Notes: generated from the sequence alone by a model not told the origin. Positions 13,246 through 32,000 are shown, counted from the first letter of the stretch. The stretch: 32,000 bases of DNA from Rhizomicrobium sp. (GCA_035944195.1 DASZBL010000024.1:8720-40719); one strand, 5' to 3'. Made by a program: numbers and translations.

Positions 13246-13404
13246 CCCCCGTGAGCTTCCTGCCTTTCGAGGGTTGAAGCTTACGCCTACATGTGGGTAG
13301 ACAATGAAGGTCGCCGCCGCCGGGGTTGGGCGGAAAAATAATTTCGATGCGGCGGCGCAGCATCGGAATTTGCTAGGAAATCCACGGCTAATCGCTATAC
13401 AGCG
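13246..13404 (-). promoter_or_regulatory. Leader/promoter region of the cassette-2 sigma gene
   Basis: Minus-strand reading contains ATTATTTTTCCGCCC, TTCATTGTCTACCC and CAACCCTCGAAAGGCAGG. These match the boxes at 474-600 and 19660-19800. Confidence 0.3.
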
Positions 13405-13437
13405 CAAAACAAAGGCGGCGGATTCGCATCCGCCGCC
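13405..13437 (-). terminator. Rho-independent terminator closing cassette 3
   Basis: Perfect 10-bp stem GGCGGCGGAT / ATCCGCCGCC (13414-13423 / 13428-13437) with loop TCGC. On the minus strand it is followed by TTTGTTTTG, about 25 nt downstream of the OMP stop at 13463. Confidence 0.75.
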
Positions 13438-13462
13438 CGTTATCAAGAAGAACTTCTGCCCG

Positions 13463-14620
13463 TCAGTCGCCTATGCCAACACTGATACTCGCGAAGGTGC
13501 CGAAGAAGCCACGGTTCTCGGATTTGCGCGCATCGATGCCGCCATCCATGGCGCCGAAGAAGAAGTCGGCCTTGTAGCCGAAGCTCATTTTGAAATCCTG
13601 CAACCGCCACGACAGCCCAACCGAACCTCCGAGATTGGGAACGGTCACGCCGCGCGAGCGCGCGTGTGTGGCGGCAAATTGCGCAGTTGTATGTGGCACC
13701 GCAGTTTGGCGGAAGACCGAGACAAGCCCATATCGCGCCGTCGATTGATGATGCGTCTTGGCTTTTTGCCGGCCGAACAAAAGGGCTCCGTTGATTGCCC
13801 AATCCGCTATGATCTCGCCATCCTGAACATTGCCGGCGAGCGGAACAGAGGATTTCCACGAGAGCGACGGTCCGACACCGCTGAAGCTGCGCTCGGCAAC
13901 CAGGCTCGCACGATTGGTGTGGAACGGCTGATTTAGGAGATGGAGGTGATAACCATAGTACGTTATGTATTTGTGCTTGAACTGCCAGTCCGGATCGGAT
14001 TTCAACGCGAAATTGGACATGCCCTTGAATTGCGCGAAGCGCATACCAACACTGACCGAGGACGAACCATCCTGATTTCCGAACAGACCAAGCCCCAAAT
14101 CTTTCCCCGCCTGGAAATCGAGAATGACGTGTTTTTCGCTGTTGTGCGCTTGCGTCTCCGCAAATCTATGCGCAACCGGACTATCCAATACTTTAATAGT
14201 AGGACGGCTAGTCAATGGATATTTGTAAGTCGGCACCGGGCTCGTCTGCTGGTCTTCATGCTTGTAGGACTTCGAACGGCCATACTGGATCGATGCGCTG
14301 AACGACCAATCGGAATTTTCGGGCTCGAAAGATAGCCTGCCATATTCATCGATGCTGTAGCGCGGCGGCTTTTCGAATTTCTGCGAAGGTTCGAAAATCG
14401 TCGGGCGGCTAGCCAGGAGCGGCGGTGCGAAAGTTTCCTGACCGTCCTGCAATTGGCTGAACTGCCCGCCGAGTTCAATCCAAACCGTCGCACGATCCAC
14501 ATCTTCCGCGCGGGCAAAACCAAGCGATGAGGTATATGCAAGCGCCAAGGCGGAGGCGCCAGTCAGTAACTTCCAGCGGATCGTAACGCGATTATCGTTT
14601 TTGTTGATGAGTTCGCTCAT
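13463..14620 (-). CDS. Putative outer-membrane beta-barrel (porin-like) protein, paralog 3
   Basis: Track ORF 13463..14638. Preferred start is ATG 14620 (MSELINKNDNRVTIRWKLL...) after GGGGGGTAGAA. Ends ...FFGTFASISVGIGD. Confidence 0.8.
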   Translation of the reverse strand: MSELINKNDNRVTIRWKLLTGASALALAYTSSLGFARAEDVDRATVWIELGGQFSQLQDGQETFAPPLLASRPTIFEPSQKFEKPPRYSIDEYGRLSFEPENSDWSFSASIQYGRSKSYKHEDQQTSPVPTYKYPLTSRPTIKVLDSPVAHRFAETQAHNSEKHVILDFQAGKDLGLGLFGNQDGSSSVSVGMRFAQFKGMSNFALKSDPDWQFKHKYITYYGYHLHLLNQPFHTNRASLVAERSFSGVGPSLSWKSSVPLAGNVQDGEIIADWAINGALLFGRQKAKTHHQSTARYGLVSVFRQTAVPHTTAQFAATHARSRGVTVPNLGGSVGLSWRLQDFKMSFGYKADFFFGAMDGGIDARKSENRGFFGTFASISVGIGD

Positions 14621-14631
14621 TTCTACCCCCC

Positions 14632-17600
14632 TCACCAATTCTTCGTGACGCGCACGCCGAAGAGGCGCGGGTCGGTCAGGAAGACGTTGGTGGTCAATCC
14701 GCTATCGTCAGAGTTCAGGAAATCACCGGTGATGGTCGTCGTGTTGAACACGTTCTTGAGATAGCCCATCGCCTGCCATCCCGACGCACTCGTCAGGATC
14801 AGCGCCAGATTGACGTTGGAATACCCGCGGATTTTGTCGTAAGGCCGGTCGTTAAAGACACGCGCCCAGCTCTGCGATTGCCAGTAAAGATCGGTATGCG
14901 CAGTTGCTGCCCAATCCTCCGATACCGGCATCGTATAATCGGCCGAGAGCGATGTGGTGAAATGCGGCGCATTGGGAAGCTCGTTGCCGCCTAGATTCTT
15001 GGCCCAACCCTCGCCGTGGTTTGGAGCTGTTGCTGGATCCCAGCCGGGATAGGGACCAGGATCATATAAGGAGCCCGCCGCACCATCGATGTAGTCGTCC
15101 GGAAATTTTGGGTTGGCCTTATAGGTGTTATACGTAACCGGGTCCAAGCCATATTGATAAGCAGTGGAGCAAGCGCCAGGAACGGTTCTTACGCCATAAC
15201 CAGTTCCCGTTGGCGGCGCGACGGTTACGAGGGCAGCCATGACATAGACCGGCAGAATGCAGTTCGACGCCTGCGTTACGAATGGTTTGACGACCATCCA
15301 ATCGGGATGCTCAGCCAGATCGGCCCGATCCATGAGATCGATTGAGCTTTGGCCATTGTCGATGCGCGTATCTTCGTAATCGCCGGCAAAGTTGAATTTG
15401 AGTCCGGGCGTCGGTTCCCACATCGCCTCGACTTCCGCGCCTCGCACAGTCGCGTCGAAATTGTCGTTGATCGAGGTGCGATCCACGATGCGTGATATCT
15501 GATAGGCTTTATAATTGTAGAAGAAGACGTCGCCGTTCAATGTCAAGCCGCCATCAAACGCCGTGTTCTTGGTGCCAAGTTCGTAGGCATCCACGAACTC
15601 CGGCTTGAAAGTTAGCGGATGTATTGGATCGGAAATTCCTGTGTTGTTGAATTCCAAAAGCGTGGCGCCCGGCGGATTGGCGCCGCCGGCCTTGTAGCCA
15701 TGGGCGTAAGATCCATAGACAAGTGTTTGATCGGTGAAATCGAGTTTCGGCGTCCAATTTGTAGCAAGGCGCCCTGTCAGCTCATTCCATTTCTGATCGA
15801 CGATCCTGGTTACGGAATAGCCATACCCGCCAGTGAGTAACTGGCTTGGAATGTCGAGGAAGTGCTTCTGATCGTCTGTAAAGCGCAGGCCGCCGGTCAG
15901 CTTCAGATCATTGGCGACATTATAATAAACTTCGCCAAATCCGGCATAGGAATTGAGCGTGTATGGATTCTGGCTGAGGAAATAGTTGTGGCCCTCATTA
16001 TTCAAATGACTGAGCGGATTTGGATCTATGTAGCCGCACGGTATTTGTCCCTCGACACCCGTATGGCTCGGGATATTTGGATTTGGCGGCTCAAGGCCGC
16101 CAGCCATGCAATTCGAATTGTCAGAGACGCCCGCGACCCAAGGCTGCGTCTGATCGGAATCAGCGCTGACAACGCCGCTGTGCACAGACGTGTAAATCGC
16201 CATGGTCAGCGAATTGATAAAGACATAGTAGTTTTCTTCGGTTTCATAATGCAGGAAATTGCCGCCGATGCTGAAGTTGAGCGGCCCGCTGAAATTTGAA
16301 GCCAGACGAAATTCCTGGCTGAGCTGCCAGGCCTTTTCGTCATTCAAGTCCTGAGCAACCAGCCGATCGCTGCAACCCAGTTGCGGATCGCAAAAGATAC
16401 CGATCGGCGAACAATATCCTTCGCCGGGCGTGAATGAGCCAGGCGTCGTACAGTTCTTTCCGCTGTCGTAGTAGACACCGAGGTTAGGTTCAGCGGTTGT
16501 TGTGTTCCTGCCGCTGTCGTCGACGGTGAAAGCACCCGGCCTTGTGTTGAAGCGGTTGTAATCTTCTGTCGACCATAGAAAGTCGTGATTGTACCCCGTC
16601 TGCGAAGTGAACGTCAGATCGGGTGCCACGCTGTAGTCGGCATTCAGTTCGATCGTGTCGTTTTTCGCTTTGTAGATCGGAGGCACGGTCGTTTCGATCA
16701 CGCGCAGATGGGTCGATTGCGACTGGTTTGCGTATGGATCGAAGGCATTGAATTCGGCAGTGATGGGGACGCCTTCGAAGCCGAGCGGCTCGTAATAAGG
16801 CAGCGTATATCCGTTCGGAACACCAAATGCACCGTAATCGCCATGAGCCGGATCGCCCTTGTCATAGAGCGAAACGGGCAGACAACTCTGGCTCAAATAG
16901 ATCGCGCCCGAATAACCCAAGGGAGGGCTGGGCGGCGGCACATAGGCGCCGTTGATGTTGGTGGGAATTGGAGCTGTTTTGCAAAGCTGCTTGCTCGTGC
17001 GCAGACGATCATCGCTTTCCTGGCAGTGCTCCCAGACGACCCATGCCTGCAATTTCTCTGACGGCTTGATCGCCAGTGTCACGCGCGTGGACCAGAGATC
17101 GCGGCCGTCAATAGGGCTGCTGGTCAGTGCATTGGTCGAATAACCATTACGCTTCGTCCATTCGCCAGCGATACGCAGATCGGCGCGATCATCCACAACG
17201 GGAATGTTCACCATGCCTTCGAACCGGCGGTTGTGGTAGTTGCCGAAATCGGCGGAAGCCATGGCTTCAAACTGATCAGTCGGTTTGGCGGAAATGACGT
17301 TCACCACACCCGCAGTCGCATTACGCCCATAAAGCGTACCTTGCGGTCCACGCAAAACTTCGACCTGATTGACGTCGAAGAATTCCTGCTCGAAGAAATG
17401 ATTGCGGATAAACGGAATATCGTTCAGTGCGACGGCCACCGCCGGATCGGTGGTGACCGAAATTGCTTGAGTGCCAATGCCGCGGATCTGGATGGTATAG
17501 CCGCTGAAATTGGTTTTGGAGAAAGTAAGGTTCGGAACTTCCTTTACGAGATCGGGACCGCCTGCGATCTGTCGAGACGTCAATTGTTCTTGCGACAGCG

Positions 17601-18042
17601 CGGTGATGGCAATCGGAACCGTTTGGATATCACCTTTGATCTTTGAGGATGTGACGACCACGCTTTCAATTCCCGCCGCCGCCGCTGCTGCCACCCTCAC
17701 TGGAGTTGTTGGCATCAATTCGTTGACGCGCTGGGAGGGTTCGTCGTGAACCACGGCGATGGCGCCTGTTGGCGTGCGATGCGGTGAAAATCCTGTACCT
17801 TCCAGGATGCGCGAGAGTGCGGCCGTCGCAGTGAGTTCGCCTTTCGCGCCTTTGGTGCGCGCGCCCTTGATGGCTTCATCCGACACAATCAGCGGAATGA
17901 CGGCCTGCATCGAATAGGCATTGAGCGCGGTCTCCAGATCGCCGCCCGGAATGTTGAAATTCGCGGCGAATGCGCTTGCGCTCAGCGCAATTGCCGACAC
18001 GCCCCCTGCGAGCGCGGATTTCAGAATGTTGGATTTTCTCAT
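14632..18042 (-). CDS. TonB-dependent receptor with STN signalling domain, ~1136 aa, paralog 3
   Basis: Track ORF 14632..18093. Preferred start is ATG 18042 (MRKSNILKSALAGGVSAIALSASAFA...) after AGGGGGGAGTG. It has the same plug and C-terminus as its paralogs, plus extra Cys/Gly/Thr-rich loop insertions. Ends VRVTKNW. Confidence 0.93.
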   Translation of the reverse strand: MRKSNILKSALAGGVSAIALSASAFAANFNIPGGDLETALNAYSMQAVIPLIVSDEAIKGARTKGAKGELTATAALSRILEGTGFSPHRTPTGAIAVVHDEPSQRVNELMPTTPVRVAAAAAAGIESVVVTSSKIKGDIQTVPIAITALSQEQLTSRQIAGGPDLVKEVPNLTFSKTNFSGYTIQIRGIGTQAISVTTDPAVAVALNDIPFIRNHFFEQEFFDVNQVEVLRGPQGTLYGRNATAGVVNVISAKPTDQFEAMASADFGNYHNRRFEGMVNIPVVDDRADLRIAGEWTKRNGYSTNALTSSPIDGRDLWSTRVTLAIKPSEKLQAWVVWEHCQESDDRLRTSKQLCKTAPIPTNINGAYVPPPSPPLGYSGAIYLSQSCLPVSLYDKGDPAHGDYGAFGVPNGYTLPYYEPLGFEGVPITAEFNAFDPYANQSQSTHLRVIETTVPPIYKAKNDTIELNADYSVAPDLTFTSQTGYNHDFLWSTEDYNRFNTRPGAFTVDDSGRNTTTAEPNLGVYYDSGKNCTTPGSFTPGEGYCSPIGIFCDPQLGCSDRLVAQDLNDEKAWQLSQEFRLASNFSGPLNFSIGGNFLHYETEENYYVFINSLTMAIYTSVHSGVVSADSDQTQPWVAGVSDNSNCMAGGLEPPNPNIPSHTGVEGQIPCGYIDPNPLSHLNNEGHNYFLSQNPYTLNSYAGFGEVYYNVANDLKLTGGLRFTDDQKHFLDIPSQLLTGGYGYSVTRIVDQKWNELTGRLATNWTPKLDFTDQTLVYGSYAHGYKAGGANPPGATLLEFNNTGISDPIHPLTFKPEFVDAYELGTKNTAFDGGLTLNGDVFFYNYKAYQISRIVDRTSINDNFDATVRGAEVEAMWEPTPGLKFNFAGDYEDTRIDNGQSSIDLMDRADLAEHPDWMVVKPFVTQASNCILPVYVMAALVTVAPPTGTGYGVRTVPGACSTAYQYGLDPVTYNTYKANPKFPDDYIDGAAGSLYDPGPYPGWDPATAPNHGEGWAKNLGGNELPNAPHFTTSLSADYTMPVSEDWAATAHTDLYWQSQSWARVFNDRPYDKIRGYSNVNLALILTSASGWQAMGYLKNVFNTTTITGDFLNSDDSGLTTNVFLTDPRLFGVRVTKNW

Positions 18043-18094
18043 CACTCCCCCCTTCGTGCGGCTTCTCGCCACTGATTGCATTTGCCCCCGCACC

Positions 18095-19078
18095 TCAGCG
18101 CGAGATCAGAATTTCGGCTCCGCGGTTCTGCACATGCAGGCGAAACACGGTTTGCACCGCGTCGGTGAACGCATGCACATCGCCGGTCGGAAATGTTCCG
18201 TCGATCGTCAACTGCTCGGCAGCAGGATCGGCGATGGTGAGTTTGGTCTGGTTGTAGCGGTTAAACTCCGCAGCCGCGGCGGCGAGCGTGGTGTGTTTGA
18301 AAATCAGCACCCCGCGCCGCCAGCTAAGCTCGTTGGAAAGCGCGCGCTGCACGCCTTTGGCGACGGACATCGTGTTCGCGGTTGCCGTTGCGACATCGCC
18401 TGCCGACAACATCGCCGATTGCGCGGGCGTTTGTTTGTCCGCGGCGTCCACCCAAACGCGGCCCTGCACTACGGCGACCTGAAGCCGCCCTGAATCGCTG
18501 CGCACCAGGAATTTCGTTCCGAGATCGGTGACGCGATGACCGCCCGCGATCACGATGAAAGGATGCACGGTGTCGTGCTTTACCTGAAAATAGGCCTCAC
18601 CCTTTTCCAGCCAGACCACGCGCTCCTGCGTCGTCATACGCGCGCGCAGTCGCGTGTTTGTGTTCAACTCGATGCGCGAACCGTCGGTGAACGCAATGGA
18701 TTCATGCCCGCCAACCGATGTCGAATAGACGCGATCTTCCGGCGCCGACAAGAAAAACGCTACGCCAGCACCCAAAACCACGATGACGGCTAACGCCGCC
18801 GCCATCCGGAAAAAATTGCCGGAGAGCCGCCCGCTCTGCGCAAATTGTTCGCGTGCGGGCGGGCGCAATGCACCCAAGAGATCGGTGTGTCCCCACGCGC
18901 CGTTCAGCCGCCAATAAGCGATGCGATGGGCCGGCGATTCTTCCAGCCAAGTATTCAACGCCGCCTTGCCGGCATCGTCCCAATCCTCGCGGTCACTGCG
19001 TTCAATCCAGGATGCCGCCTGCGCGTTGATTTCTCTCGCGCTCGCTTCGACTTTCTGTTGGGGGTTTGCGTCGCTCAT
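18095..19078 (-). CDS. FecR-like anti-sigma factor, paralog 3
   Basis: Track ORF 18095..19243 is over-extended into the sigma gene. ATG 19078 (MSDANPQQKVEASAREINAQAASWIERSDREDWDDAGKAALNTWLEESPAHRIAYWRLNGAW) recreates the ATGA overlap with the sigma stop that cassette 2 shows (cassette 1 has the equivalent 4-nt GTGA overlap). Confidence 0.9.
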   Translation of the reverse strand: MSDANPQQKVEASAREINAQAASWIERSDREDWDDAGKAALNTWLEESPAHRIAYWRLNGAWGHTDLLGALRPPAREQFAQSGRLSGNFFRMAAALAVIVVLGAGVAFFLSAPEDRVYSTSVGGHESIAFTDGSRIELNTNTRLRARMTTQERVVWLEKGEAYFQVKHDTVHPFIVIAGGHRVTDLGTKFLVRSDSGRLQVAVVQGRVWVDAADKQTPAQSAMLSAGDVATATANTMSVAKGVQRALSNELSWRRGVLIFKHTTLAAAAAEFNRYNQTKLTIADPAAEQLTIDGTFPTGDVHAFTDAVQTVFRLHVQNRGAEILISR

Positions 19079-19659
19079 GCGCGCTCCCCCAAAACTGCGA
19101 TGTCGCCATAGAGCGTGTTGGCGAGCACGGCGATGCCGTTCGCCAGATGTTCGGATACGGTGTCCTGACTGATGCCCATGCGCGCGGCGATTTCGGGCCG
19201 GGACAATCCTTCGATCCGCCTGAGCACCACCACTTCGCGGCAACGCGGCGGCAGACGATCGAGCGCGGTTTGCAGGCGGCGCAGCAAATCGCGCGCAATC
19301 ACATTGCGATCCGGTCCCGGTACTTCGATGGCGGCACCCAGCGCATCCAGATCGGCCACGGCCTCGATCGGCACGACGTGTTCGCGGCGCACGCGATTGA
19401 TGAGAAGATTGCGCGCGGTGCGCAGTAGAAATGCCTTGGGCTGCGCGGGAACTTCCTTCCGCGCCGCTTCATAGACCCGCACATAGACTTCCTGGCGCAA
19501 ATCCTCGATCTCGCTTTTGTTGCGCCAGCTCTGTTGGAGGAAATGCATCAATATCGACTCCAGCGGAAAAATCTCGCGCAGAAACCAGGCCTCCAGATCG
19601 GACGCGCTCATGCACGCACCCGAGGCGCCGCTCTCATTGATCTCCGGTCTCTCGGCCAT
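19075..19659 (-). CDS. ECF (FecI-type) sigma factor, cassette 3
   Basis: MAERPEINESGASGACMSASDLEAWFLREIFPLESILMHFLQQSWRNKSEIEDLRQEVYVRVYEA...; region 4 is REVVVLRRIEGLSRPEIAARMGISQDTVSEHL. Confidence 0.9.
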   Translation of the reverse strand: MAERPEINESGASGACMSASDLEAWFLREIFPLESILMHFLQQSWRNKSEIEDLRQEVYVRVYEAARKEVPAQPKAFLLRTARNLLINRVRREHVVPIEAVADLDALGAAIEVPGPDRNVIARDLLRRLQTALDRLPPRCREVVVLRRIEGLSRPEIAARMGISQDTVSEHLANGIAVLANTLYGDIAVLGERA

Positions 19660-24272: not shown

Positions 24273-24952
24273 GCGGGCTCTTTCTGGCGCGACGAAAGGC
24301 AGCCACGCTCCAGCGCCATCATGTTGGCACCCAGGCTTTCGGCTCCCGCTTTGTCGTTCGATGTCACCAGTAGCGCTACGTGCTGCACGGCGACGAGGCG
24401 CTTGAGATCGGCCTGCAATTCCGCGCGCGCTTCGGGATCGAGACCTTCGAACGGCGCGTCGAGCATGACGATGTGCGGTTCGGTGATGAGCGCGCGCGCC
24501 AGGAGCGCCCGCTTGGTGAGACTGGCGGAAATCTCATTGCTCTGCGCATTGCGCCACGGATCGAGATCAAAATTGATCAGGCAATGTTCCAGCCGCTTCT
24601 CGATTTCGCTGTCGGCGAGTTCCAGTTTGCAAAGCGGGAAGGCGAGATTTTCCGCGAGCGTCAGATCATGCAGCAGCGCGCCGTTTTCCAGCACAAGCCC
24701 GATATGACGGCGCAGCTTGTGCCATTCATGTTCCGGCAAATTCTCGGCCGCCTCGCCCGCGATCTGCAAGTGACCTTCCGAGGCGCGCTCGAGGCCCGCG
24801 AGCAGGCGCAACAAAAGCGTCTTGCCTGAGCCGCTGCGCCCGACAATAGCCATGCATTGGCCGCGTTCCAGCGTGAAGGAAATATCGTCGAGCACGCGTG
24901 CGCCACCGCGCATGAGCGCCAGGCCGCGCGCCTCGATCATGATCTCGCTCAT
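24269..24952 (-). CDS. MlaF-like ABC ATPase subunit with degenerate catalytic motifs (227 aa)
   Basis: Track ORF 24269..25747 is over-extended across the permease gene. ATG 24952 (MSEIMIEARGL...) overlaps the permease stop as ATGA. Walker A GRSGSGKT is intact (nt 24818-24841). Signature is ISASL rather than LSGGx (24518-24532). Walker B is IVMLDAP, with Ala where the catalytic Glu should be (24455-24457). H-loop is VTSND, with Asn for His (24356-24358). Confidence 0.88.
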   Translation of the reverse strand: MSEIMIEARGLALMRGGARVLDDISFTLERGQCMAIVGRSGSGKTLLLRLLAGLERASEGHLQIAGEAAENLPEHEWHKLRRHIGLVLENGALLHDLTLAENLAFPLCKLELADSEIEKRLEHCLINFDLDPWRNAQSNEISASLTKRALLARALITEPHIVMLDAPFEGLDPEARAELQADLKRLVAVQHVALLVTSNDKAGAESLGANMMALERGCLSSRQKEPA

Positions 24953-25740
24953 GCGCCTGCCCCGGCGAAGATCGCGGCAGCGCCGAATATCGCGAGCAGC
25001 GAGATCACGAAGGTCCGCCACGCAGCGGCTTCGAGCGTTTGCGGATCGCGGCCTGCGCCGCTGCCTTCGGCAGAGGCGATGCCGAGCGCGAGCATCGCAT
25101 AAACTTCCACGCGCAGGAACCCAAACCAGAAATCGCTGCGTGCGCCTTCGGCAAAAACGATCGTCGTATAGCGGGCAACAGGAATCGCCTCGAATTGCTG
25201 TAGCGTGAGCGCGGCTGCCAAATGCGCGATGCCGTCTCCCCAAACCAGCAATGCCGCCGCCGCAAAGAGGAATGCGAGCAAGCTCGCGGGCAATACATGA
25301 TCGGCCGGGTCCACACCCATCAGGCGCAGGGAATCCACTTCGCCGCCTGCGATCATGCGCCCAATTCGCACGGCGAGTGCCACGCCCGAGCGCCCGGCGA
25401 CGAAAATCCCGATCAGCACCGGCATCACTTCGCGCATCAGTGCCGAGCGCAACGCTCGCAATAGCGGTTCTTCCAGATTCACAACATGAAACGCCCGCGA
25501 CACGCTGAAGGCTAGCACCAGCCCCGTCAGCGCGGCCAGCATGGTGACGATGGGCAAGGGACGCAATGCGGTGTCGGAGAGCGCATCCACCGTGCGGCGG
25601 CGCGCAAACCTGTCGCCGCGCAGCAGCGCCGGAAGGCCGACAAATGCGGCTTGCAGGAAAAATGCGAACAGGCCGACATTCTCCACGCCACCCTGAATCG
25701 CGCGACCGCCGGCATTTCTGATGTCCCCGATCATTGCCAT
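24949..25740 (-). CDS. MlaE-like ABC transporter permease
   Basis: Polytopic hydrophobic protein of MlaE-like size (263 aa). It carries the MlaE-type core REVMPVLIGIFVAGRSGVALAVRIGRMIAGGEVDSLRLMGVDPADHVLPASLL. The start is 25740, or 25734 which would give an ATGA overlap with the upstream stop. Confidence 0.85.
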   Translation of the reverse strand: MAMIGDIRNAGGRAIQGGVENVGLFAFFLQAAFVGLPALLRGDRFARRRTVDALSDTALRPLPIVTMLAALTGLVLAFSVSRAFHVVNLEEPLLRALRSALMREVMPVLIGIFVAGRSGVALAVRIGRMIAGGEVDSLRLMGVDPADHVLPASLLAFLFAAAALLVWGDGIAHLAAALTLQQFEAIPVARYTTIVFAEGARSDFWFGFLRVEVYAMLALGIASAEGSGAGRDPQTLEAAAWRTFVISLLAIFGAAAIFAGAGA

Positions 25741-27323
25741 GGCGCACGCCTCAGAGCACCGTTCAAATCGAGTTCGATTATGCGAGCAGCGCTTTGCGAA
25801 GTGGCACTTCCGATTTGAATGACGAAATCGGCTGCGGCGGCAGACGACACCAAAATGGTTTCGGCCCTCCCCGCCAGAGCGATTGCTTCGGGCGGAAGAT
25901 TCTCGTTCGGCTGAACGATCACGCTTAATTTGGCTTTGGCGAGGGCGATCTCGGCGGCGCGGCGCTGAACGGGGGATGCAAGCGCCGTGCGCAATACAAG
26001 CACGCGCTCCGGGTAGCGCTTCGTCAAATCATCTAATAGATACGGAAAGCCTGTGTCGAAGCCACTTTGGGGCGCGCCGCCGCCATGAAGCGCCAGCGTG
26101 AGATCGCGCAGGATCGTCTGCTTCACGCGGTCGAGTTGGGCGGGAATGGCGCGCACCGAAAGCCGGTCGAGATCGCGGATTTCGGGCGTCAGCGATTCAT
26201 AGGGAACCAGCAGCGGCGTCAGCTTCGCGGCATCGTCGCGCGTTTCGCCATAGCGCCAGCCATCCAGCATCTGCACGGCAGCCCAGCGCTGATGCTCCAT
26301 TTCGGCGAGCGCTTCCCGTTCTTCCGTCGTGAACGCGAAGCGCGGGCCGCCATCCGCCGGAACGATGTGGCAGGAAATCGCCGCGAGCTTGCAGGCGATG
26401 TGATCGGCCTGATGGCGCGACGCGGCGCGGAAGCGCTCGGGCAGCGCGTCCCATGGCTGCATGCTGGGACGAATGCCGATTGTGTGGCCCGCTTGCCGCC
26501 GCTCTTCGAGATAGAGTTCGTGAATGGCCTGCGCCTGCAAATCGGCGGGGTCTGAAAACAGCGCCGCCACGGCCTCGCGCCAATCGGTTTGCAGCACGGC
26601 AATCGTTCCGGCGGGTGCTGGGCCAGCGCAAGGAAGCCAGTAGACCGGCACAAACCAATCGGGATGTTTCTGCGCATTCCATATCGCAGCATCGGCGACA
26701 TAGATAGCGGATGCAGCGCCATCCCAGTTTTCGGTTGCCGCAAGCGTTCCGATTTCTTTCAGCGCGGGCAACGAAGATGTAAGCGCATCGAGCCAGCGTT
26801 CGCCGCCCACAATCGTCGCGCGCGGCTTGACGCCGGGCAAATGCATCATGCGGAAAAGCTGAAGCAGAATTTGCTCGGCTTCCGCGCCCGTGCCGAAAAT
26901 AACCGGCTGCGGTGCTTGCGCGTCATAGTTCAACCGGCCGAATGGATGATCGAGCAGCAGACGCCGCGCCATGCGCTGCGATGCCGATAGTGGGCGCACG
27001 CGCAAACCATTGCCGGTTTCTGAATCGAAATCCTGTATGGCAGTGAGCGCGGCTTGCGTTTCCGCGGCAATGGCGAAAATTGTTTGCTGCCCGGAGATCT
27101 GCCAGCCTGCAGCCGCCTTACGCGCTGCATCGAGATCGGTCTGTTCGTCGCCGCTGGCGAATATCACGCAGGTGGGTGATTTTTGATCAGAAAGCGCCGC
27201 AACATCGGGCAAACGCGTGACGTGATAGCCTGCGCCTATCGCGCCTTGCACAATCGGCTCAACCGCACCCACAACGACAAGCTCGCCGCCCGGCTTAATC
27301 GCGCGTTGCAGCCATTTCAGCAT
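25731..27323 (-). CDS. Soluble paralog (530 aa): two degenerate Rossmann-like domains + RyR-like repeat module + C-terminal alpha/beta extension
   Basis: Track ORF 25731..27686 is over-extended across the lipoprotein gene. ATG 27323 (MLKWLQRAIKPGGELVVVG...) overlaps the lipoprotein stop by 7 nt. RyR-like module (res ~262-396, nt 26136-26540): QAIHELYLEE...WDALPERFRAASRHQADHIACKL...ALAEMEHQRWAAVQMLDGWRYGETRDDAAKLTPLLVPYESLTPEIRDLDRLSVRAIP. It is collinear with the 22350-24272 protein. No TM helix was seen. Confidence 0.82.
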   Translation of the reverse strand: MLKWLQRAIKPGGELVVVGAVEPIVQGAIGAGYHVTRLPDVAALSDQKSPTCVIFASGDEQTDLDAARKAAAGWQISGQQTIFAIAAETQAALTAIQDFDSETGNGLRVRPLSASQRMARRLLLDHPFGRLNYDAQAPQPVIFGTGAEAEQILLQLFRMMHLPGVKPRATIVGGERWLDALTSSLPALKEIGTLAATENWDGAASAIYVADAAIWNAQKHPDWFVPVYWLPCAGPAPAGTIAVLQTDWREAVAALFSDPADLQAQAIHELYLEERRQAGHTIGIRPSMQPWDALPERFRAASRHQADHIACKLAAISCHIVPADGGPRFAFTTEEREALAEMEHQRWAAVQMLDGWRYGETRDDAAKLTPLLVPYESLTPEIRDLDRLSVRAIPAQLDRVKQTILRDLTLALHGGGAPQSGFDTGFPYLLDDLTKRYPERVLVLRTALASPVQRRAAEIALAKAKLSVIVQPNENLPPEAIALAGRAETILVSSAAAADFVIQIGSATSQSAARIIELDLNGALRRAPWQ

Positions 27324-27934
27324 CGCGCGGATTGCGGCGCGTTGACCGCGCTCGCGGCCATGTCTTGTGTGAGATGCACAAGCACCTGACGAAATGCTTC
27401 GTCGAACGCCGCCTCGATTCCTGCCGCACCATCGCCGGCCCGCGGCTGCTGTGCGCAATAAGAGCCCATCAGAAACGCCTGCCGCTGCGGCCCTTTGAGA
27501 ATGGTCACTTCCAGATCGACAATCGCCGTGCCGTCTGCGGAAAGCTCGAAGCGGTCGAGCCGCGCCGAGAGCATGTAGTCCGCAATTCCCGGCAGATCGG
27601 GCGCAAATACGGCGTCCGCGATCTTTGCCGCGCGCAATACCTGCGTGACGACGATGGAAGCGGCCTGCGGCGGGGTTTCCTCCCACAGGAAACTTGCCGA
27701 TTGCTTGCGCTCGTTGGGCGCTTGCGCGTCGAAATAGACCAGACGCCGCTCGCCCAGAAGACCGCGCGCCTGAAATGGCTGCACCTGGAGCGCGCCTTGC
27801 AAATGCGTGGCGGCAACAGGCATTTCGGACGGCGCATCCAGCCGCATGTTGCGGCTTTCCGGTGCGGTGCTGCAGGCCGCCAGCATCGACGCCGCAAACA
27901 GCACAACCAATCGAAAGGAAGAAATGTTTCGCAT
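27317..27934 (-). CDS. ABC-type transport auxiliary lipoprotein (PqiC/YmbA-like, DUF330-type)
   Basis: Lipoprotein signal peptide with lipobox LAAC (Cys21, nt 27872-27874). About 200 aa, positioned directly after an MCE gene as is usual for this family. Begins 3 nt after the MlaD-like stop. Confidence 0.75.
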   Translation of the reverse strand: MRNISSFRLVVLFAASMLAACSTAPESRNMRLDAPSEMPVAATHLQGALQVQPFQARGLLGERRLVYFDAQAPNERKQSASFLWEETPPQAASIVVTQVLRAAKIADAVFAPDLPGIADYMLSARLDRFELSADGTAIVDLEVTILKGPQRQAFLMGSYCAQQPRAGDGAAGIEAAFDEAFRQVLVHLTQDMAASAVNAPQSARC

Positions 27935-27937
27935 GCG

Positions 27938-28867
27938 CTATCTCGGTTTGGTGTCGGCTGGATCGCCAAGCGCGCGGCCGCTGACCATCGCGCGTGGATC
28001 GTCGCGAAGCTTGGCGGTGATCTCCTTCAGATCGGCACTCGCCGCCTGCATGTTCGCAGCGATGGAGGCCATCGATGTCGCGGTCACGCCCAGAATATAG
28101 CGCAGATCGGTGACCGACGAACCCACCGGCTCCGCATTTTTGTGCACCAGCCCGTTCATTTCGGTGGCAGCGAGACTTGCCTGCTTGGACGTGGCCGCAA
28201 GATTGTCGATCATCGATGCGATCTGGCGCTGGCGCTTGTCGTTCAGCAAGCCGCGCGCGGTTTCGCTGATAGCCTGCACATTGGTCAGCGTTGCGTTCAT
28301 GCGCGCGATGAGCGCGACCGATCCGTTCGCCGAAGCGCCGCCGGCCTTAATCTCTTCCGGCGTCGGTGCCAGCGCACGCAGCACGGTGTTCACGCGTTCA
28401 ACCGTATCGCGGGTGGTGTTGATCGTCTGCAGGGTCAGCTCGATCATGCTGGGATGATGCCCGCAACCGCGCAATTGCGCGCCCGGCAGCGAAGGGTCGT
28501 AAGTGGGTTCGGGACAATCCTTGCCGCGCGCGATGCTCAAGGTCGCGGGTTGCAGCGGATTGGGCGCGTCGATCACCAGCCCGACATCGCGCATATCCTC
28601 CGTCTGCCAATCGGGATCGAGCCGCACGCGCACCAGAAACCGCCGCTCGCGCAGATGCTGCTCGATGCGCGTGACATGGCCGATCACGAAGCCTTCATCT
28701 TTTACCGCCGCGCCTTCGCCCAGATTGGCAACGTTCTTGAATACCGCGACATAAGGATGGCGCCGGTCCAGCACCTCTGGCGCGAAGGCAGCGACAAGCG
28801 CCACCACGACCAGAATGGCGATGGTTGCAAGGCCAAGCCGGAATTGCAGAACAGGATCAGGACGCAT
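27938..28867 (-). CDS. MlaD/MCE-domain protein (309 aa), first gene of the operon
   Basis: N-terminal TM LGLATIAILVVVALVAAF. MCE-domain signature YVAVFKNVANLGEGAAVKDEGFVIGHVTRIE...RVRLDPDW. A long helical C-terminal region. Confidence 0.85.
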   Translation of the reverse strand: MRPDPVLQFRLGLATIAILVVVALVAAFAPEVLDRRHPYVAVFKNVANLGEGAAVKDEGFVIGHVTRIEQHLRERRFLVRVRLDPDWQTEDMRDVGLVIDAPNPLQPATLSIARGKDCPEPTYDPSLPGAQLRGCGHHPSMIELTLQTINTTRDTVERVNTVLRALAPTPEEIKAGGASANGSVALIARMNATLTNVQAISETARGLLNDKRQRQIASMIDNLAATSKQASLAATEMNGLVHKNAEPVGSSVTDLRYILGVTATSMASIAANMQAASADLKEITAKLRDDPRAMVSGRALGDPADTKPR

Positions 28868-28991
28868 GGAATATGATCGACCTTCGACCTCTGTGGTCTA
28901 TCATGATTGGCGCGCCGGTTGAACCCGCTTCCAATTCGCGCTGCGGCATGCTGGACTGAGCGGGCCTCATTGAATTGATCCCCTCATTTCC

Positions 28992-31900
28992 ATGCAGCCA
29001 TTGCGGATTTTTGTCTCTTCGCCCTCGGATGTGAATCCGGAGCGCGCGGCTGCCGCCCGTGTGATCGACAGGCTGGGCCGCGAATTCGGCGGTTTCTTCG
29101 CCATCCAGGCCGAATTGTGGGAGCAGGAGCCGCTGCGCGCCACGGCGGATTTTCAGGGGCAGATCCCGCGCCCCTCAGAAGCCGATATCGTGCTGGTGGT
29201 GGTGTGGTCGCGATTGGGCACGCGGCTGGCGCCGGGCAGCTTCAAGGGCTCACTGAGCGGCGGTGCGGTGACCGGCACCGAGTGGGAATTCGAGGATGCC
29301 GCCCGCAGCTTTCGCGAGCGCGGCGTGCCCGATCTGCTCTTCTATCGCAAGACCGCGCGCATCGACATCGCACTTGGCGATGATAATGCCATCGAGCAGC
29401 GGCGCGAAGAAAAGCGTCACCTCGATCAATTCCTGCAGAGCTGGTTCTTCACCGAGACGGCGGAGTTCAAGGGCGCGTTTTCGTCTTTCACCACCACGCA
29501 TGAATTCGAACTCATCGTTGAGCAGCATCTGCGCAAGCTTATTCAGGCGCGCGTGAATGCGCTGGATGTGGCCTCCGCTCAGGCCCCGCCGGCGCGCTGG
29601 CAGGGCGGCTCGCCGTTCCGCGGGCTCGAGCCGTTCGACGTGGAACATGCGGGAATTTTCTACGGCCGCAGCCGCGCGCGCATGGAAGTGCGCGAAGCGT
29701 TGACAACGCGCGCCGCGCAAGGCGCTGCGTTTGTCTTGCTGCTCGGGATGAGCGGTTCGGGAAAATCCTCGCTGGTGCGCGCGGCGTTGATCCCAGATCT
29801 CGCCGTGCCCGGCATGATCGAGCAGGTGGGATTGTTCCGCTATGCGCTGCTGCGGCCTTCGGATTCGCCTGCCGATCCGCTCGCCGCATTGGCCGAGGCG
29901 CTGATTGCGGATTCGGCGCTGCCCGAATTGGAAAGCATGGGTTGGAATGCCGCGCGAATTGCAGAGCAGCTTGGCTCCGCGCCTGAAGATATGCTGCCGG
30001 TTCTCGAAGAAGCATTGGAAAAGGCAGGCGTCGCAGCGGGCCTTCTGGAAGGCGCAAAGGCGCGGCTGTTGCTCGCTGTCGATCAACTCGAAGAATTGTT
30101 CACGCTGACGGGCCTTGAACCCGAAACGCGCGACCGCTTTATCAATGCGCTGCATGTTCTGGCGCGCAGCGGCACGGTGTGGGTCATCGCCACAATGCGC
30201 AGCGACATGTTCCATCATCTGGCGTCGGCGCCGCGGCTCGCGGAACTGGCGGAAGGTGTGGGCCAATATCATTTGCTGCCGCCGCAGCCTTCGGAGATTT
30301 CGCAGATCATCCGCGAGCCGGCATCGGCAGCGGGCCTGCGCTTCGAGATCGACCCGAAAACCAATGTCGGGCTCGATGAAGTTTTGCATGAGGCGATGGA
30401 AGATGATCCCGCGGCGTTGCCGCTGCTCGAATTCACGCTGGACGAATTGTTCAAGACGCGCACGGCGCGCGGCGTGCTGACTTACGAAGCCTATAATCGC
30501 CTCGGCGGAATCGAGGGCGCGCTGGCGCGGCGCGCGGAAGATGTTTTCGCGGGCCTTCCCGGCGATACGCAGAATGCCTTTGCTTCCGTCGCGTGTGCGC
30601 TTGTCGTGCAGCAGCGTGGCAGCGGCGGCGGATTCGCGGCGCGGCGCGCACCCTGGAGCGAATTTGCGAACGATTCCGCGCGCGCGGCATTGGTGGATGC
30701 TTTCGTCGCGGCGCGCCTCTTCGTGACCGATGCGGGCGAAGGCAGTGCGCGCACCATTCGCGTGGCGCATGAAGCGTTGTTCCGTTGCTGGCCTCGCATG
30801 CGCGAGGCGCTGGAGCGCGATGCGGCATTTCTCGTCGCGCGCGAAAGGCTGGCAACCGCTACTGAGCGCTGGCTTGCCGAAGACCGCGCGCCCGATTTCC
30901 TGCTGCAAGAGGGCCGCGTTCTGGCGGAAGCCGAAGAATTGCTGCAGACGCGCGGCAATGACCTCGACCCCACCGTACAGGAATTCATCGCCACTTCGGC
31001 AGAGGCCGTACACAGGCGGCGCACGCGCGGTTTGCGCTGGGCCCGCGCAATTGCTGCGGGGTTTGCGCTGATTGCCATAATCGCGGGGGGGGCCGGATGG
31101 TTCGCCTTGCAAAATCGCGACGCGGCCGAGCACGCGCGCAATGAAGCGGTTGAGCGGCGCGACGGCGCACTGCGCTCGGAAAGTTTTTTCCTGGCGGCAC
31201 TTTCCTACAAATCGACCAAATCGGGCGATCCTGTCAGCGGCGCGCTGCTGGCGCGCGCAGCCATGCCTCGCGAGATTGCCAAACCCGACCGCCCCCTGGT
31301 GAATGAAGCGCGCGATGCGCTGGCCTACGCGCTGGCGAGTTTGAAAGAGGAACGCGGCGTTATCCGCCATTCGGGCGACAAGGTGCAGGCGTCTTTTTTC
31401 CCCAACGGCACGGTCGGAAGCATCGGCGGCAATGATCCGCTGCGTCTGTCGCGCGTGCCTGACGGCAAGGAGATCGCGCATTTCGGAGACCACGCGCCCG
31501 GCAATGCATGGATCAACGACGATGGCAGCCAGATCATTCTGCTCGATGGCGAAAATCTGAAATTCTTCGACAGCGCGACGGGAAAACAGACAAGACAGCT
31601 CCCGCTGGCCAAGCGCGCCGACGGTCTGGTGAATGTCATTATAGATACACCCCTGTCGCGCGCAGCACTTTATTATGCGGGCGCTGGCGCGGAATTGATC
31701 GCGCTGCCGCATGGGCGTGTGCTGACGAAATTCGGCAATGCTTCGCCCGTTCTGCTGATGCAGCTTGCGGGCAAATCCTTGCTGTGGGCCGATGTGGCGG
31801 GCGATTTGGTTTTGCAGAACGCAAGCGACGGCGGCGGGATACGCCCGCTTGTCGGACATAAAGGGATGGTGACGGCGATTGCGTTGTCGCCCGATCTCGC

Positions 31901-32000
31901 TGCGAGCGGCGGCATCGATGGAACGGTGCGGCTTTGGTCGATAGCGGATGGAAGCCCGCGCGGCGTGTTCCAGCATGGCAGCCCGGTGCTGAATCTTCAG
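28992..32000 (+). CDS. TIR-like/DUF4062-like N-terminal domain + STAND P-loop NTPase (nSTAND1-like) + TM helix + WD40 repeats; partial (open at the right window edge)
   Basis: Not in the ORF track because there is no stop in the window. I read frame 0 from ATG 28992 to 32000 codon by codon over most of its length and found no stop (1003 codons). N-terminus: MQPLRIFVSSPSDVNPER...ADIVLVVVWSRLGT...GTEWEFEDA...PDLLFYRK. NTPase entry motif SPFRGLEPFDVEHAGIFYGR. Walker A GMSGSGKSS (29745-29768). Walker B LLLAVDQLEELF (~30066-30101). TM WARAIAAGFALIAIIAGGAGWFAL (~31038-31112). WD40 blade GHKGMVTAIALSPDLAASGGIDGTVRLWS (~31854-31940). Confidence 0.85.
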   Translation, partial: MQPLRIFVSSPSDVNPERAAAARVIDRLGREFGGFFAIQAELWEQEPLRATADFQGQIPRPSEADIVLVVVWSRLGTRLAPGSFKGSLSGGAVTGTEWEFEDAARSFRERGVPDLLFYRKTARIDIALGDDNAIEQRREEKRHLDQFLQSWFFTETAEFKGAFSSFTTTHEFELIVEQHLRKLIQARVNALDVASAQAPPARWQGGSPFRGLEPFDVEHAGIFYGRSRARMEVREALTTRAAQGAAFVLLLGMSGSGKSSLVRAALIPDLAVPGMIEQVGLFRYALLRPSDSPADPLAALAEALIADSALPELESMGWNAARIAEQLGSAPEDMLPVLEEALEKAGVAAGLLEGAKARLLLAVDQLEELFTLTGLEPETRDRFINALHVLARSGTVWVIATMRSDMFHHLASAPRLAELAEGVGQYHLLPPQPSEISQIIREPASAAGLRFEIDPKTNVGLDEVLHEAMEDDPAALPLLEFTLDELFKTRTARGVLTYEAYNRLGGIEGALARRAEDVFAGLPGDTQNAFASVACALVVQQRGSGGGFAARRAPWSEFANDSARAALVDAFVAARLFVTDAGEGSARTIRVAHEALFRCWPRMREALERDAAFLVARERLATATERWLAEDRAPDFLLQEGRVLAEAEELLQTRGNDLDPTVQEFIATSAEAVHRRRTRGLRWARAIAAGFALIAIIAGGAGWFALQNRDAAEHARNEAVERRDGALRSESFFLAALSYKSTKSGDPVSGALLARAAMPREIAKPDRPLVNEARDALAYALASLKEERGVIRHSGDKVQASFFPNGTVGSIGGNDPLRLSRVPDGKEIAHFGDHAPGNAWINDDGSQIILLDGENLKFFDSATGKQTRQLPLAKRADGLVNVIIDTPLSRAALYYAGAGAELIALPHGRVLTKFGNASPVLLMQLAGKSLLWADVAGDLVLQNASDGGGIRPLVGHKGMVTAIALSPDLAASGGIDGTVRLWSIADGSPRGVFQHGSPVLNLQ

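Follow-up and report, generated by a model that had tools for sequence, protein, structure and literature searches.

The gene beginning at base 28992 of the window (the whole 32,000-nucleotide stretch of Rhizomicrobium sp. DNA that was analysed) is confirmed as a real and very large bacterial gene for a STAND protein, and the Mla/RyR operon next to it is its conserved partner module, not an unrelated neighbour. The odds are somewhat better than even that the protein is an NLR-like conflict sensor working from outside to inside, and that what its predicted NADase produces may serve as a signal to partners with RyR or SLOG domains.

Identification of the gene and its reading frame

As the original prediction had it, the plus-strand frame is open for 1003 codons from the ATG at 28992 up to base 32000, and the sequence motifs quoted there were all found in place. 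A start upstream of this ATG is impossible because of the in-frame TGA at 28971, and homologues start at the same MxxLRIF[IV]SSP motif. Extension was achieved by recovering the gene's own contig (L081); the full-length protein has 1472 aa, with an identical entry (P0001) in the protein collection, and the gene runs about 1.4 kb past the window, which carries 68% of it (1003/1472 codons). The gene, its upstream region and the overlapping antisense frame are as follows:

28992..32000, plus strand: DUF4062/NIR - nSTAND1 - TM - WD40 gene, first 1003 of 1472 codons (open frame, P0001, L081)
28868..28991, no strand: intergenic region of 124 bp shared with the divergent MlaD-like gene, holding the in-frame TGA
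29250..31976, minus strand: antisense ORF of 908 aa, a shadow frame and not a gene

A sigma-70-like site, a consensus match only, lies at 28877-28904 on the plus strand of the intergenic region.

It had also been noted that the ORF listing omits the STAND ORF and gives the 908-aa antisense ORF instead; this is correct, and the omission arises only because the STAND ORF runs off the window end. The chance that the antisense ORF is the true gene and the plus-strand frame spurious is negligible. It is listed by a mechanical ORF caller, and a GC3/codon-position test was uninformative, since the third codon position of the antisense frame lies opposite the first of the sense frame, so that GC3 cannot choose between the two. 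Homology decides the matter in favour of the sense frame, which matches nSTAND1 at E=1.3e-90 and whose protein has thousands of homologues, whereas a Pfam scan of the 908-aa ORF gave no match and comparable antisense ORFs shadow the STAND gene in 72/80 related loci. On these grounds the antisense ORF was rejected as a gene.

N-terminal NADase-like domain and nSTAND1 NTPase

The following features were assigned to the region preceding the hydrophobic segment:

28992..29366, plus strand: DUF4062/NIR core, aa 1-125, five-stranded alpha/beta (sub-threshold Pfam match, relatives, AF2, PADLOC)
29274..29300, plus strand: GTEWEFEDA motif, aa 95-103, aligned with the last positions of the DUF4062 profile
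29280-29282, plus strand: E97, candidate catalytic glutamate (conservation; position in characterised DUF4062 proteins)
29367..29606, plus strand: aa 126-205, helices extending the N-terminal domain, with a linker (AF2 helices 131-152 and 169-196)
29613..30893, plus strand: nSTAND1 NTPase module, aa 208-634 (PF20703, E=1.3e-90)
29745..29771, plus strand: Walker A / P-loop GMSGSGKSS, aa 252-260 (by inspection)
30066..30095, plus strand: Walker B-like LLLAVDQLEE, aa 359-368 (by inspection)

Profile matches support the placing of the N-terminal domain as a divergent DUF4062/NIR domain of the TIR-like NADase family. The DUF4062 profile (PF13271) was covered in full (1-82/82) at E=7e-4, although the score, 20.1 bits, falls short of the 24.7-bit cut-off; DUF4062 was the sole family matched in 25/30 aligned relatives (best E=9e-6), and a precomputed PF13271 match is present in one relative (P0036). 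In addition, the N-terminus of the PADLOC profile PDC-S60 matches this domain (E=3e-5), and the AF2 model of the core has a pLDDT of 89.6. Alignment of the relatives revealed that G95, T96 and E99 are invariant and E97 is at least 90% conserved; the glutamate in the S/G-x-T-E motif of the DUF4062 domain is conserved, and its position agrees with that of the catalytic Glu of characterised DUF4062 proteins, which is E97 (KpSwz), E98, E103, E108 or E87. Of the DUF4062/TIR-like N-terminus in the original prediction, the DUF4062 part stands, whereas "TIR" is right only in the superfamily sense, because searches with the canonical TIR profiles (PF01582 / PF13676) gave none at E<=10 and the structural matches were generic. 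Foldseek comparison of the AF2 model with the PDB returned flavodoxin-like alpha/beta sandwiches at TM<=0.39, with no TIR in the top 50 and a nucleoside 2'-deoxyribosyltransferase at rank 27; matches of this kind are not by themselves support for TIR. A profile search of the domain against PDB sequences found no match. DUF4062 has been shown to be a TIR-like NADase in three 2026 preprints; the characterised enzymes deplete NAD+ and make linear ADPR, the only product documented, and no signalling product of a DUF4062 enzyme is known. Cleavage of NAD+ by the N-terminal domain is predicted with good likelihood.

The nSTAND1-type NTPase proposed earlier is unambiguous: PF20703 (Kaur et al. 2021) matched with 305.3 bits versus a cut-off of 27.1 over profile positions 1-378/379, and the Walker A and Walker B motifs are both intact. 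A PADLOC-DB 2.0 scan of the STAND protein matched neither Avs1-5 nor any other catalogued defence-STAND family; its matches were limited to the PDC-S60 N-terminus and P-loop-only matches. Only P-loop noise was obtained with NCBIfam, and a sequence search of the NTPase against the PDB revealed no STAND relative, only ABC ATPases matched through the P-loop.

Predicted transmembrane helix, topology and WD40 sensor

Downstream of the NTPase, four further features were located:

31011..31046, plus strand: Arg-rich flank HRRRTRGLRWAR, aa 674-685, predicted cytoplasmic
31041..31109, plus strand: predicted single TM helix, aa 684-706 (Kyte-Doolittle; homologue conservation)
31116..31337, plus strand: helical juxtamembrane module, aa 709-782, predicted extracytoplasmic (AF2 pLDDT 76-94)
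31350..32000, plus strand: first part of two WD40 propellers in tandem, which span aa 787-1439 of the complete protein (WD40 profile, AF2, Foldseek)

The anticipated WD40 region is clear in the full C-terminus, where PF00400 matched four stretches (E=9e-38) and the AF2 model has a propeller fold with about 63 strands (pLDDT 83.6). Foldseek matches of this model included tandem propellers, 2ymu (4e-34) and Apaf-1 (4e-28), and weak matches to TEP1 propeller profiles were also found. The juxtamembrane helical module is a conserved block in WD40-type homologues. Across the family, swapping of the C-terminal sensor is extreme, with WD40, TPR, caspase and CHASE2 represented.

WD40 propellers are classically cytoplasmic, and CHASE2 is a canonical extracytoplasmic sensor. 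The TM helix was called from hydropathy only, with a modest Kyte-Doolittle value of 1.73 (19-residue window) for an Ala/Gly-rich segment. A hydrophobic helix is, however, kept in 115/120 homologues at a median of 436 aa after the P-loop, its position and hydrophobicity being conserved while its sequence varies, and homologues keep it irrespective of what follows, be it WD40, TPR, a caspase, a GH19-like domain or, in the tail-anchored variants, nothing at all. In the homologue set the helix flanks are strongly asymmetric, with a net charge of +4.6 on the N side versus +0.9 on the C side (p=2e-20), and in one relative (P0081) a CHASE2 domain directly follows the helix, followed by three further TM helices. 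Because the helix is family-wide, its flank charges are asymmetric and CHASE2 follows it in P0081, the sensor is predicted to be extracytoplasmic; the protein is likely a single-pass, N-in / C-out inner-membrane protein with periplasmic WD40 propellers. Both the single helix between NTPase and WD40 and the location of the latter outside the cytoplasm, proposed from this one sequence, are in this way backed by the family. A segment that does not span the membrane, with the WD40 propellers in the cytoplasm and folded onto the NTPase in the manner of Apaf-1, would fit the cytosolic WD40-STAND proteins (Apaf-1 and the TEP1/NWD1 class), the place of Apaf-1 among the top structural matches for the C-terminus, the composition and modest hydropathy of the helix, and the single Cys in the C-terminal part. 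Given the conservation of the helix despite its varying sequence, the positive-inside asymmetry, P0081 and the tail-anchored homologues, such an arrangement is quite improbable.

The partner operon and its linkage to the STAND gene

The operon divergent from the STAND gene begins with the MlaD-like gene and comprises seven genes:

27938..28867, minus strand: MlaD-like (MCE) protein, 309 aa, N-terminal membrane anchor (weak MlaD match; orthologues match MlaD)
27317..27934, minus strand: ABC_trans_aux (PF03886) lipoprotein, 205 aa (signal sequence and Cys lipobox-like N-terminus)
25731..27323, minus strand: soluble RyR-domain protein, 530 aa (PF02026, E=8e-16)
24949..25740, minus strand: MlaE-type permease, 263 aa, five hydrophobic helices
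24269..24940, minus strand: MlaF-type ABC ATPase, 223 aa
22350..24272, minus strand: TrkA_N + RyR membrane protein, 2-TM, 640 aa
21202..22353, minus strand: patatin phospholipase of the CBASS-effector type, 383 aa (Pfam Patatin 5e-27)

The RyR domain (PF02026, R12) was matched in two of the proteins (E=8e-16 and 3e-11). Phage RyR (R12) domains have very recently been shown to bind and cleave cADPR-type signals (RyDEP preprint), and both partner domains align to RyDEP across its ligand pocket. The 530-aa protein keeps the equivalents of RyDEP H75, W78 and D117, and the 640-aa protein those of H75, W78 and H100, with N in place of D117. Among nine host RyR domains, H75 is conserved in all and W78 in eight, while D117 or H100 is kept depending on the clade; RyR proteins linked to Mla genes have D117, which is replaced by N in those of the TrkA_N-RyR type. 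The two partner domains thus seem capable of binding signal molecules derived from NAD. A PADLOC scan of the partner proteins matched only the patatin ("Effector Phospholipase", 9e-46).

The original prediction saw in the lipid operon a divergent neighbour; the orientation is right, but the operon is more than a neighbour. The Mla/RyR set lies beside the STAND gene in 5/6 close orthologues of 47-63% identity (L001, L120, L121, L122 and L124), whereas the opposite flank is unrelated and different in each of these genomes. In L124 the set is downstream and co-directional, 28 nt past the STAND stop codon, and in L122 RyR is fused to MlaE. Neither L123, a relative with 48% identity, nor 79/80 species-representative loci have the linkage, which is confined to one clade. 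An obligate pair of TrkA_N-RyR and STAND genes was considered and rejected (5/80 loci one way, 1/35 the other). TrkA_N-RyR genes occur in SLOG-SLATT cassettes in 18/35 loci and in TIR cassettes in 5/35; SLOG-domain genes, among them SLOG-SLATT and TPR-S-SLOG-cyclase genes, adjoin other members of the STAND family in 21/80 loci, and no SLOG-type neighbour was found in the window itself. On the surrounding chromosome, Hsp33, argF, argD and gcrA lie downstream, and upstream there are TonB/FecR cassettes. No defence island was seen at this locus or around three distant relatives, where the neighbours are housekeeping or signalling genes; the relatives sampled adjoin cyclases, periplasmic binding proteins and partner-switching genes.

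Proposed function

A conflict or immune role for the STAND protein is probable. As regards Thoeris-like signalling, the RyR neighbours keep RyDEP ligand-contact residues and SLOG genes lie beside relatives, as described above; signalling from the STAND NADase to the RyR partners is a tentative proposal that we hold at somewhat less than even. The mechanism we have in mind places the DUF4062/NIR domain and the nSTAND1 switch in the cytoplasm, followed by the TM helix, a helical stalk and two periplasmic WD40 propellers. The propellers would bind an envelope-side cue, perhaps some part of a phage or competitor, or a disturbance of the neighbouring MCE/Mla system, upon which NTP-dependent oligomerisation of nSTAND1 at the membrane would gather the NIR domains and switch on NAD+ cleavage. 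This would result in NAD+ depletion, an ADPR-type product, or both, and the product might be read by the co-inherited RyR domains, namely those of the RyR protein, which would act together with the MlaE/MlaF/MlaD transporter, and of the 2-TM TrkA_N-RyR protein, with the CBASS-type patatin as the putative membrane-attacking effector. In its complete form, in which an ADPR-type messenger is read by host RyR domains that control the MCE/Mla transporter and the TrkA_N protein, with the CapV-like patatin as executioner, the pathway is speculative and, taken as a whole, rather unlikely.

In an alternative scheme, the STAND protein is a stand-alone, Avs-like abortive-infection sensor that depletes NAD+ and so brings about death or arrest of the cell, and the Mla/RyR/patatin operon is unrelated and co-inherited by descent. 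Every characterised DUF4062 system depletes NAD+ as a single gene or simple pair, the Mla/RyR linkage is limited to one clade, and a DUF4062-nSTAND1 gene is present in only 1/35 TrkA_N-RyR loci. Against this, the linkage persists where genes have been reordered or turned round, even as everything on the opposite flank is exchanged, a RyR-MlaE fusion exists, the domains of the partners are precisely the ones now recognised as binders of NAD-derived ligands, and SLOG receptors adjoin other members of the STAND family; we regard the scheme as unlikely, at perhaps one chance in several. Less probable still is a housekeeping regulator of envelope homeostasis, whose propellers would monitor periplasmic or outer-membrane lipid and tune the MCE/Mla transporter with no part in conflict. 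The housekeeping context of the chromosome, the lipid-transport type of the partner ABC system and the neighbours of the relatives sampled agree with it, but an effector domain that destroys NAD+ and a patatin of the CBASS type are signatures of systems for suicide or conflict, the extreme sensor swapping is typical of arms-race proteins, and a preprint's survey found an enrichment of NIR genes in the vicinity of defence genes. The conflict sensor acting from outside to inside is the preferred reading.

Comparison with known systems

Avs proteins with DUF4062/NIR, such as PsAvs2 (bioRxiv 10.64898/2026.09.04.749371), have the same order of NIR NADase, STAND NTPase and C-terminal repeat sensor, and the logic expected by this likeness is NAD+ cleavage activated by oligomerisation. 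The present protein differs in belonging to the nSTAND1 clade, with no PADLOC Avs profile match, in having a WD40 instead of a TPR sensor and linked Mla/RyR genes, and in the conserved TM helix that separates NTPase from sensor. TEP1, NWD1 and NWD2 (DUF4062-NACHT-WD40) share with it DUF4062, a STAND NTPase and tandem WD40 propellers, and Apaf-1, among its best C-terminal structural matches, shares the STAND NTPase and WD40 with a CARD in place of DUF4062; these proteins are, however, soluble and have NACHT or AP-ATPase modules, in contrast to nSTAND1 and a membrane-spanning helix.

Current descriptions of STAND/NLR-like receptors in prokaryotes have them sense phage proteins inside the cell. 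A targeted literature search found no description of a membrane-spanning STAND topology, and the words "membrane" and "periplasm" are absent from the main text of a 2026 survey of 589 STAND clades. In a large nSTAND1 subfamily, a conserved predicted TM helix separates the switch from the sensor; the latter could then neither fold back on the NTPase nor meet cytoplasmic phage proteins, and this implies sensing outside the cytoplasm and an activation independent of such folding back. If the outside-in reading is true, STAND receptors would not be confined to intracellular sensing, and cells would be using RyR domains to receive signals derived from NAD. The functional picture is drawn from genomes throughout, yet it is testable with standard assays. 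By analogy only, Toll-like receptors also combine an external repeat sensor, a single TM helix and an internal TIR-superfamily domain; neither the sensor nor the chain as a whole is homologous, the domains run in the opposite N-to-C order with a STAND NTPase in between, and here the TIR-like domain is predicted to be enzymatic.

In Thoeris-type systems (bioRxiv 10.64898/2025.12.03.692087), TIR produces a cADPR-type signal for SLOG, Macro, SLATT or phospholipase effectors. Similarly, a putative NAD+-cleaving domain of the TIR superfamily here adjoins genes for receptor domains of NAD-derived ligands and for membrane or phospholipase effectors, but the enzyme is DUF4062, not canonical TIR, it is fused to a STAND sensor, and the putative receiver is a RyR domain. 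No description of RyR as a host effector receptor was found in the literature surveyed. Whereas RyDEP is a small protein with which phages counter defence, as an enzyme or a sponge, the RyR domains here are host-encoded, reside in large proteins associated either with an ABC transporter or with a 2-TM TrkA_N protein, and are genetically linked to a predicted NADase. The association of host RyR with NADase-STAND, SLOG-SLATT/TIR cassettes and an Mla-type transporter offers a concrete system for cellular RyR sensing, and the question of its ligand echoes the old cADPR-ryanodine-receptor problem in animals. As in Mla / MCE transporters (MlaFEDB; PqiC-type PF03886), the partner operon has MlaE-, MlaF- and MlaD-like and PF03886 genes with the expected topologies; it differs from these in the inserted RyR protein (the one fused to MlaE in L122), the coupled STAND gene, and the TrkA_N-RyR and CBASS-type patatin genes with which it ends.

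Identification of the STAND gene

The plus-strand reading frame starting from ATG 28992, put forward in the original prediction as an unlisted gene of more than 1000 codons, was indeed open for 1003 codons up to the end of the window, and no start could lie upstream because an in-frame TGA was located at 28971. It was missing from the mechanical ORF list because the frame exceeds the window end, and an antisense ORF was listed instead.

28992–32000 and beyond, + strand: STAND gene
29250–31976, antisense: ORF of 908 aa

A full-length identical protein of 1472 aa (P0001) was present in the protein collection, and recovery of its contig (L081) provided the extension to the full ORF that had been suggested as a check. 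Homologues share the starting motif MxxLRIF(I/V)SSP with the window protein. Codon-position GC did not separate the sense from the antisense frame. No family match was found for the antisense ORF, and clustering of the flanking ORFs of 80 related loci revealed its equivalents beside the STAND gene in 72, a recurrence that marks them as shadow frames within a G+C-rich gene; on these grounds it was rejected as a gene.

Domain organization

Residues 208–634 covered the whole nSTAND1 profile (PF20703; E=1.3e-90, 305 bits), in agreement with the predicted NTPase type, and retained an intact Walker A (GMSGSGKSS, aa 252–260) and an intact Walker B-like segment (LLLAVDQLEE, aa 359–368). This domain was defined as a conflict-system STAND clade (Kaur et al. 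2021). Among 8000 candidates examined, 2989 proteins belonged to the family at E<=1e-3; they came from Alphaproteobacteria, Abditibacteriota, Armatimonadota, Eremiobacterota, Acidobacteriota, Verrucomicrobiota, Planctomycetota and others, under the source names "nSTAND1 domain-containing NTPase", "WD40 repeat protein" and "conflict system STAND superfamily ATPase". Since the family is large, widely spread and already named, the STAND gene is not an orphan.

The N-terminus had been described as TIR-like or DUF4062-like, of which the latter stood and the former held in the superfamily sense only. Residues 5–103 covered the DUF4062 profile (PF13271) in full, at a sub-threshold score (20.1 versus 24.7 bits), and of 30 N-terminal domains aligned, 25 matched DUF4062 as their sole family; the motif G95-T96-E97-W98-E99 was near-invariant. 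An AlphaFold2 model of aa 1–207 (pLDDT 89.6) displayed an alpha/beta core with five strands and a helical extension. Foldseek against PDB returned only generic flavodoxin-like folds for it, with a nucleoside 2'-deoxyribosyltransferase at rank 27 and no TIR near the top; this fold comparison thus did not single out TIR, and canonical TIR membership was not supported. DUF4062, renamed NIR, is a TIR-like, glutamate-dependent NAD+ glycohydrolase, found as the effector of Avs2, Swarozyc, Vulcan, Vesta and Evangelion and in human TEP1 (three 2026 preprints); the catalytic Glu of characterised members is E97, E98, E103, E108 or E87, within an S/x-T-E motif. Judging from the end point of the profile alignment and these motif descriptions, E97 of the window protein is probably its counterpart. 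One homologue (P0059) carries SGTAFEFEDA, with Ala for the putative catalytic E97, Phe for W98 and E99 kept; it is perhaps an inactive variant, or may point to E99 instead of E97 as the catalytic residue.

The WD40 region expected after the NTPase was recovered in the C-terminal 766 residues (E=9e-38). In a model of aa 640–1472 (pLDDT 83.6), a long helix running through an Arg-rich segment and a hydrophobic span is followed by a compact helical module (aa 709–782), two propellers of about 63 strands in all (aa 787–1439) and a short helical cap bearing a conserved PRxLTxxERxx motif; the top structural matches were tandem propellers, including 2ymu (4e-34) and Apaf-1 (4e-28). The cap (aa 1444–1472; L081 ~14330–14416, outside the window) has the fuller motif (V/A)PRxLTxxERxx(F/L)(F/L)L, which is kept across phyla at the extreme end of WD40-type members. 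The gene belongs to the nSTAND1 family and combines a WD40 sensor with a DUF4062/NIR effector of divergent sequence.

A conserved hydrophobic helix and its predicted membrane topology

The single transmembrane helix proposed between NTPase and WD40 proved by hydropathy to be a family feature. Across 120 homologues, hydrophobicity over 19 residues peaked a median of 436 residues past the P-loop (IQR 434–441), with a Kyte-Doolittle mean above 1.6 in 115. Mean net charge was +4.6 over the 15 residues before the helix versus +0.9 after it, the N-side charge being the higher in 110 homologues (Wilcoxon p=2e-20). The helix was retained with any C-terminus, whether WD40, TPR, a caspase domain, a GH19-like domain or none; in the last case the protein is a tandem [DUF4062-nSTAND1]x2 anchored by its C-terminal tail. 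In another homologue (P0081), CHASE2 (E=6e-26), reportedly a canonical extracytoplasmic sensor module, directly follows the helix and precedes three further hydrophobic helices. The N-terminal 680 residues lack a signal sequence and require cytosolic ATP and NAD+, and are therefore consistent with an N-in/C-out arrangement, which would place the propellers outside the cytoplasm. This predicted membrane-spanning design across the family goes beyond the accessible literature, being unmentioned there, including two NADase preprints and a 2026 survey of 589 STAND clades, in which STANDs are framed as sensing "inside cells".

Two of the tandem proteins, P0015 (1475 aa) and P0031 (1456 aa), have the whole DUF4062-nSTAND1 unit duplicated, with the hydrophobic helix at the C-terminal extreme and no external domain; they look tail-anchored, suggesting that membrane location itself may be important. 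In a Marivibrio MAG (L118 12668–15948), a Peripla_BP_6 periplasmic-binding-protein gene and the STAND stop codon overlap, and an adenylate/guanylate cyclase gene comes next, again with an overlap, an arrangement that looks operon-like and like another pointer to periplasmic sensing.

The divergent Mla/RyR operon

As predicted, a lipid operon diverges from the STAND gene: seven genes lie upstream across a gap of 124 bp, encoding an MlaD-like protein, a PF03886 lipoprotein, a soluble RyR-domain (PF02026) protein of 530 aa (RyR530), MlaE, MlaF, a 2-TM TrkA_N-RyR protein and a patatin matching PADLOC CBASS-type phospholipase effectors (E=9e-46). Five orthologous loci kept the core (MlaD, lipoprotein, RyR, MlaE, MlaF) beside the STAND gene, each with unrelated genes on the opposite flank. 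The RyR domains span about aa 456–565 in the TrkA_N-RyR protein and about aa 301–412 in RyR530.

Orthologous loci with the core kept (STAND identity)
L001 (60%)
L120 (63%)
L121 (60%): TrkA_N-RyR and patatin also kept
L122 (47%): RyR fused to MlaE
L124 (47%): core downstream and co-directional, 28 nt past the STAND stop; TPR-S gene upstream

Linkage that outlasts rearrangement and includes a fusion is a standard genomic signature of functional association, and on this basis the operon is a partner of the STAND gene, not a bystander. The RyR-MlaE permease fusion (L122 2437–4806, − strand; 789 aa) implies an ABC transporter regulated directly by an RyR domain. The Mla/RyR set was absent from two relatives (L123, 48%; L125, 43%) and from 79 of 80 species-representative loci, and the module is therefore clade-specific. 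In L123, an Exo_endo_phos family gene (8956–9942) begins 17 nt past the STAND stop and an unannotated 609-aa gene is divergently upstream; these may form an alternative effector set in place of Mla/RyR.

RyR domains and SLOG neighbours

RyDEP, the RyR-domain (PF02026) proteins of phages, bind 2'cADPR and 3'cADPR, either cleaving them to ADPR or sequestering them, through a catalytic dyad (H75/D117), adenine stacking by W78 and a phosphate contact at H100 (May 2026 preprint, which does not discuss host-encoded RyR effectors). Alignment of RyDEP (DyoEdafos gp78) with nine host RyR domains showed that every one of them has H75 and that eight have W78. D117 was kept in the Mla-linked RyR proteins, whose dyad is therefore intact; the TrkA_N-RyR proteins kept H100 and had N at position 117, as would be expected if they bind the ligand without hydrolysing it. 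The conserved coupling of the STAND gene to an Mla/MCE-RyR(-TrkA_N-RyR-patatin) module, with RyR domains keeping ADPR-ligand residues, is likewise beyond the accessible literature. The C-terminal half of RyR530 (window 25734–26498, − strand) had weak homologues in 22 phage records (E 1e-3 to 2e-5; 30–48% identity over ~50–90 aa), all annotated hypothetical, from phages of Arthrobacter, Aeromonas, Vibrio, Acidovorax, Brevundimonas and Escherichia, which would fit an exchange of the RyR ligand-binding module between hosts and phages.

In 35 metagenomic TrkA_N-RyR loci, a SLOG-SLATT gene was directly upstream in 18 (32–93% identity) and a TIR_2 gene directly downstream in 5, so that TrkA_N-RyR proteins are regular parts of TIR/SLOG-type cassettes; with a DUF4062-nSTAND1 gene in only one, the pairing with STAND is occasional, not obligate. 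The conserved three-gene cassette of SLOG-SLATT/DUF4231, TrkA_N-RyR and TIR_2 (L083–L114, e.g. L084 8121–12531; also L035 3332–8479), on contigs of acidobacterial type and from peat/soil metagenomes, looks like a Thoeris-type system with an RyR-domain membrane component.

SLOG genes, none of which occurred within the window, also adjoin relatives of the STAND gene. A TPR-S + SLOG-like + class III cyclase gene (~600 aa) adjoined the DUF4062-nSTAND1-TM gene in 15 of 80 loci, in varying orientation, and a SLOG (YAcAr) + SLATT/DUF4231 gene did so in six; both share a SLOG-like core (blastp E=1e-6). TPR-S(-cyclase) neighbours were also present at the CHASE2 variant, L124 and L125.

TPR-S + SLOG-like + class III cyclase genes
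L002 3957–5768: overlaps the STAND start codon
L026 8091–9887, and 13 further loci
L119 5964–7784
L124 4535–6424

Type I Thoeris systems sense gcADPR produced by TIR through SLOG as the receptor, and in type VII systems cADPR activates SLATT proteins as effectors.

Proposed signalling

The original reading of the protein was supported as a whole, and the best-supported interpretation is an outside-in NLR-like sensor. An envelope-side cue would be bound by the propellers, nSTAND1 would oligomerise at the membrane, and the NIR domains would be switched on to cleave NAD+, resulting in NAD+ depletion and/or an ADPR-type product. Such a product might be read by RyR partners in the window clade and SLOG partners in other clades, these controlling the Mla-type transporter and the TrkA_N membrane protein, while patatin would serve as the effector that degrades membranes. 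Domain identities, helix conservation, gene linkage and the kept ligand-pocket residues are shown here; topology, enzyme activity, the kind of product, the way information flows and the trigger are inferred. Against this model, linear ADPR is the only product of characterised DUF4062 enzymes, and a single clade has the Mla/RyR link; housekeeping genes flank the locus, and the sampled relatives reside in signalling-type, not defence-island, neighbourhoods.

Other features of the window

725–19659, − strand: three tandem paralogous cassettes

In each cassette, genes for an ECF sigma factor and a FecR anti-sigma factor accompany one for a TonB-dependent receptor (1112, 1112 and 1153 aa) that carries an STN domain, and one for a protein of ~395 aa that is unannotated or weakly OMP-like; such threefold repetition of a surface-signalling unit is unusual.
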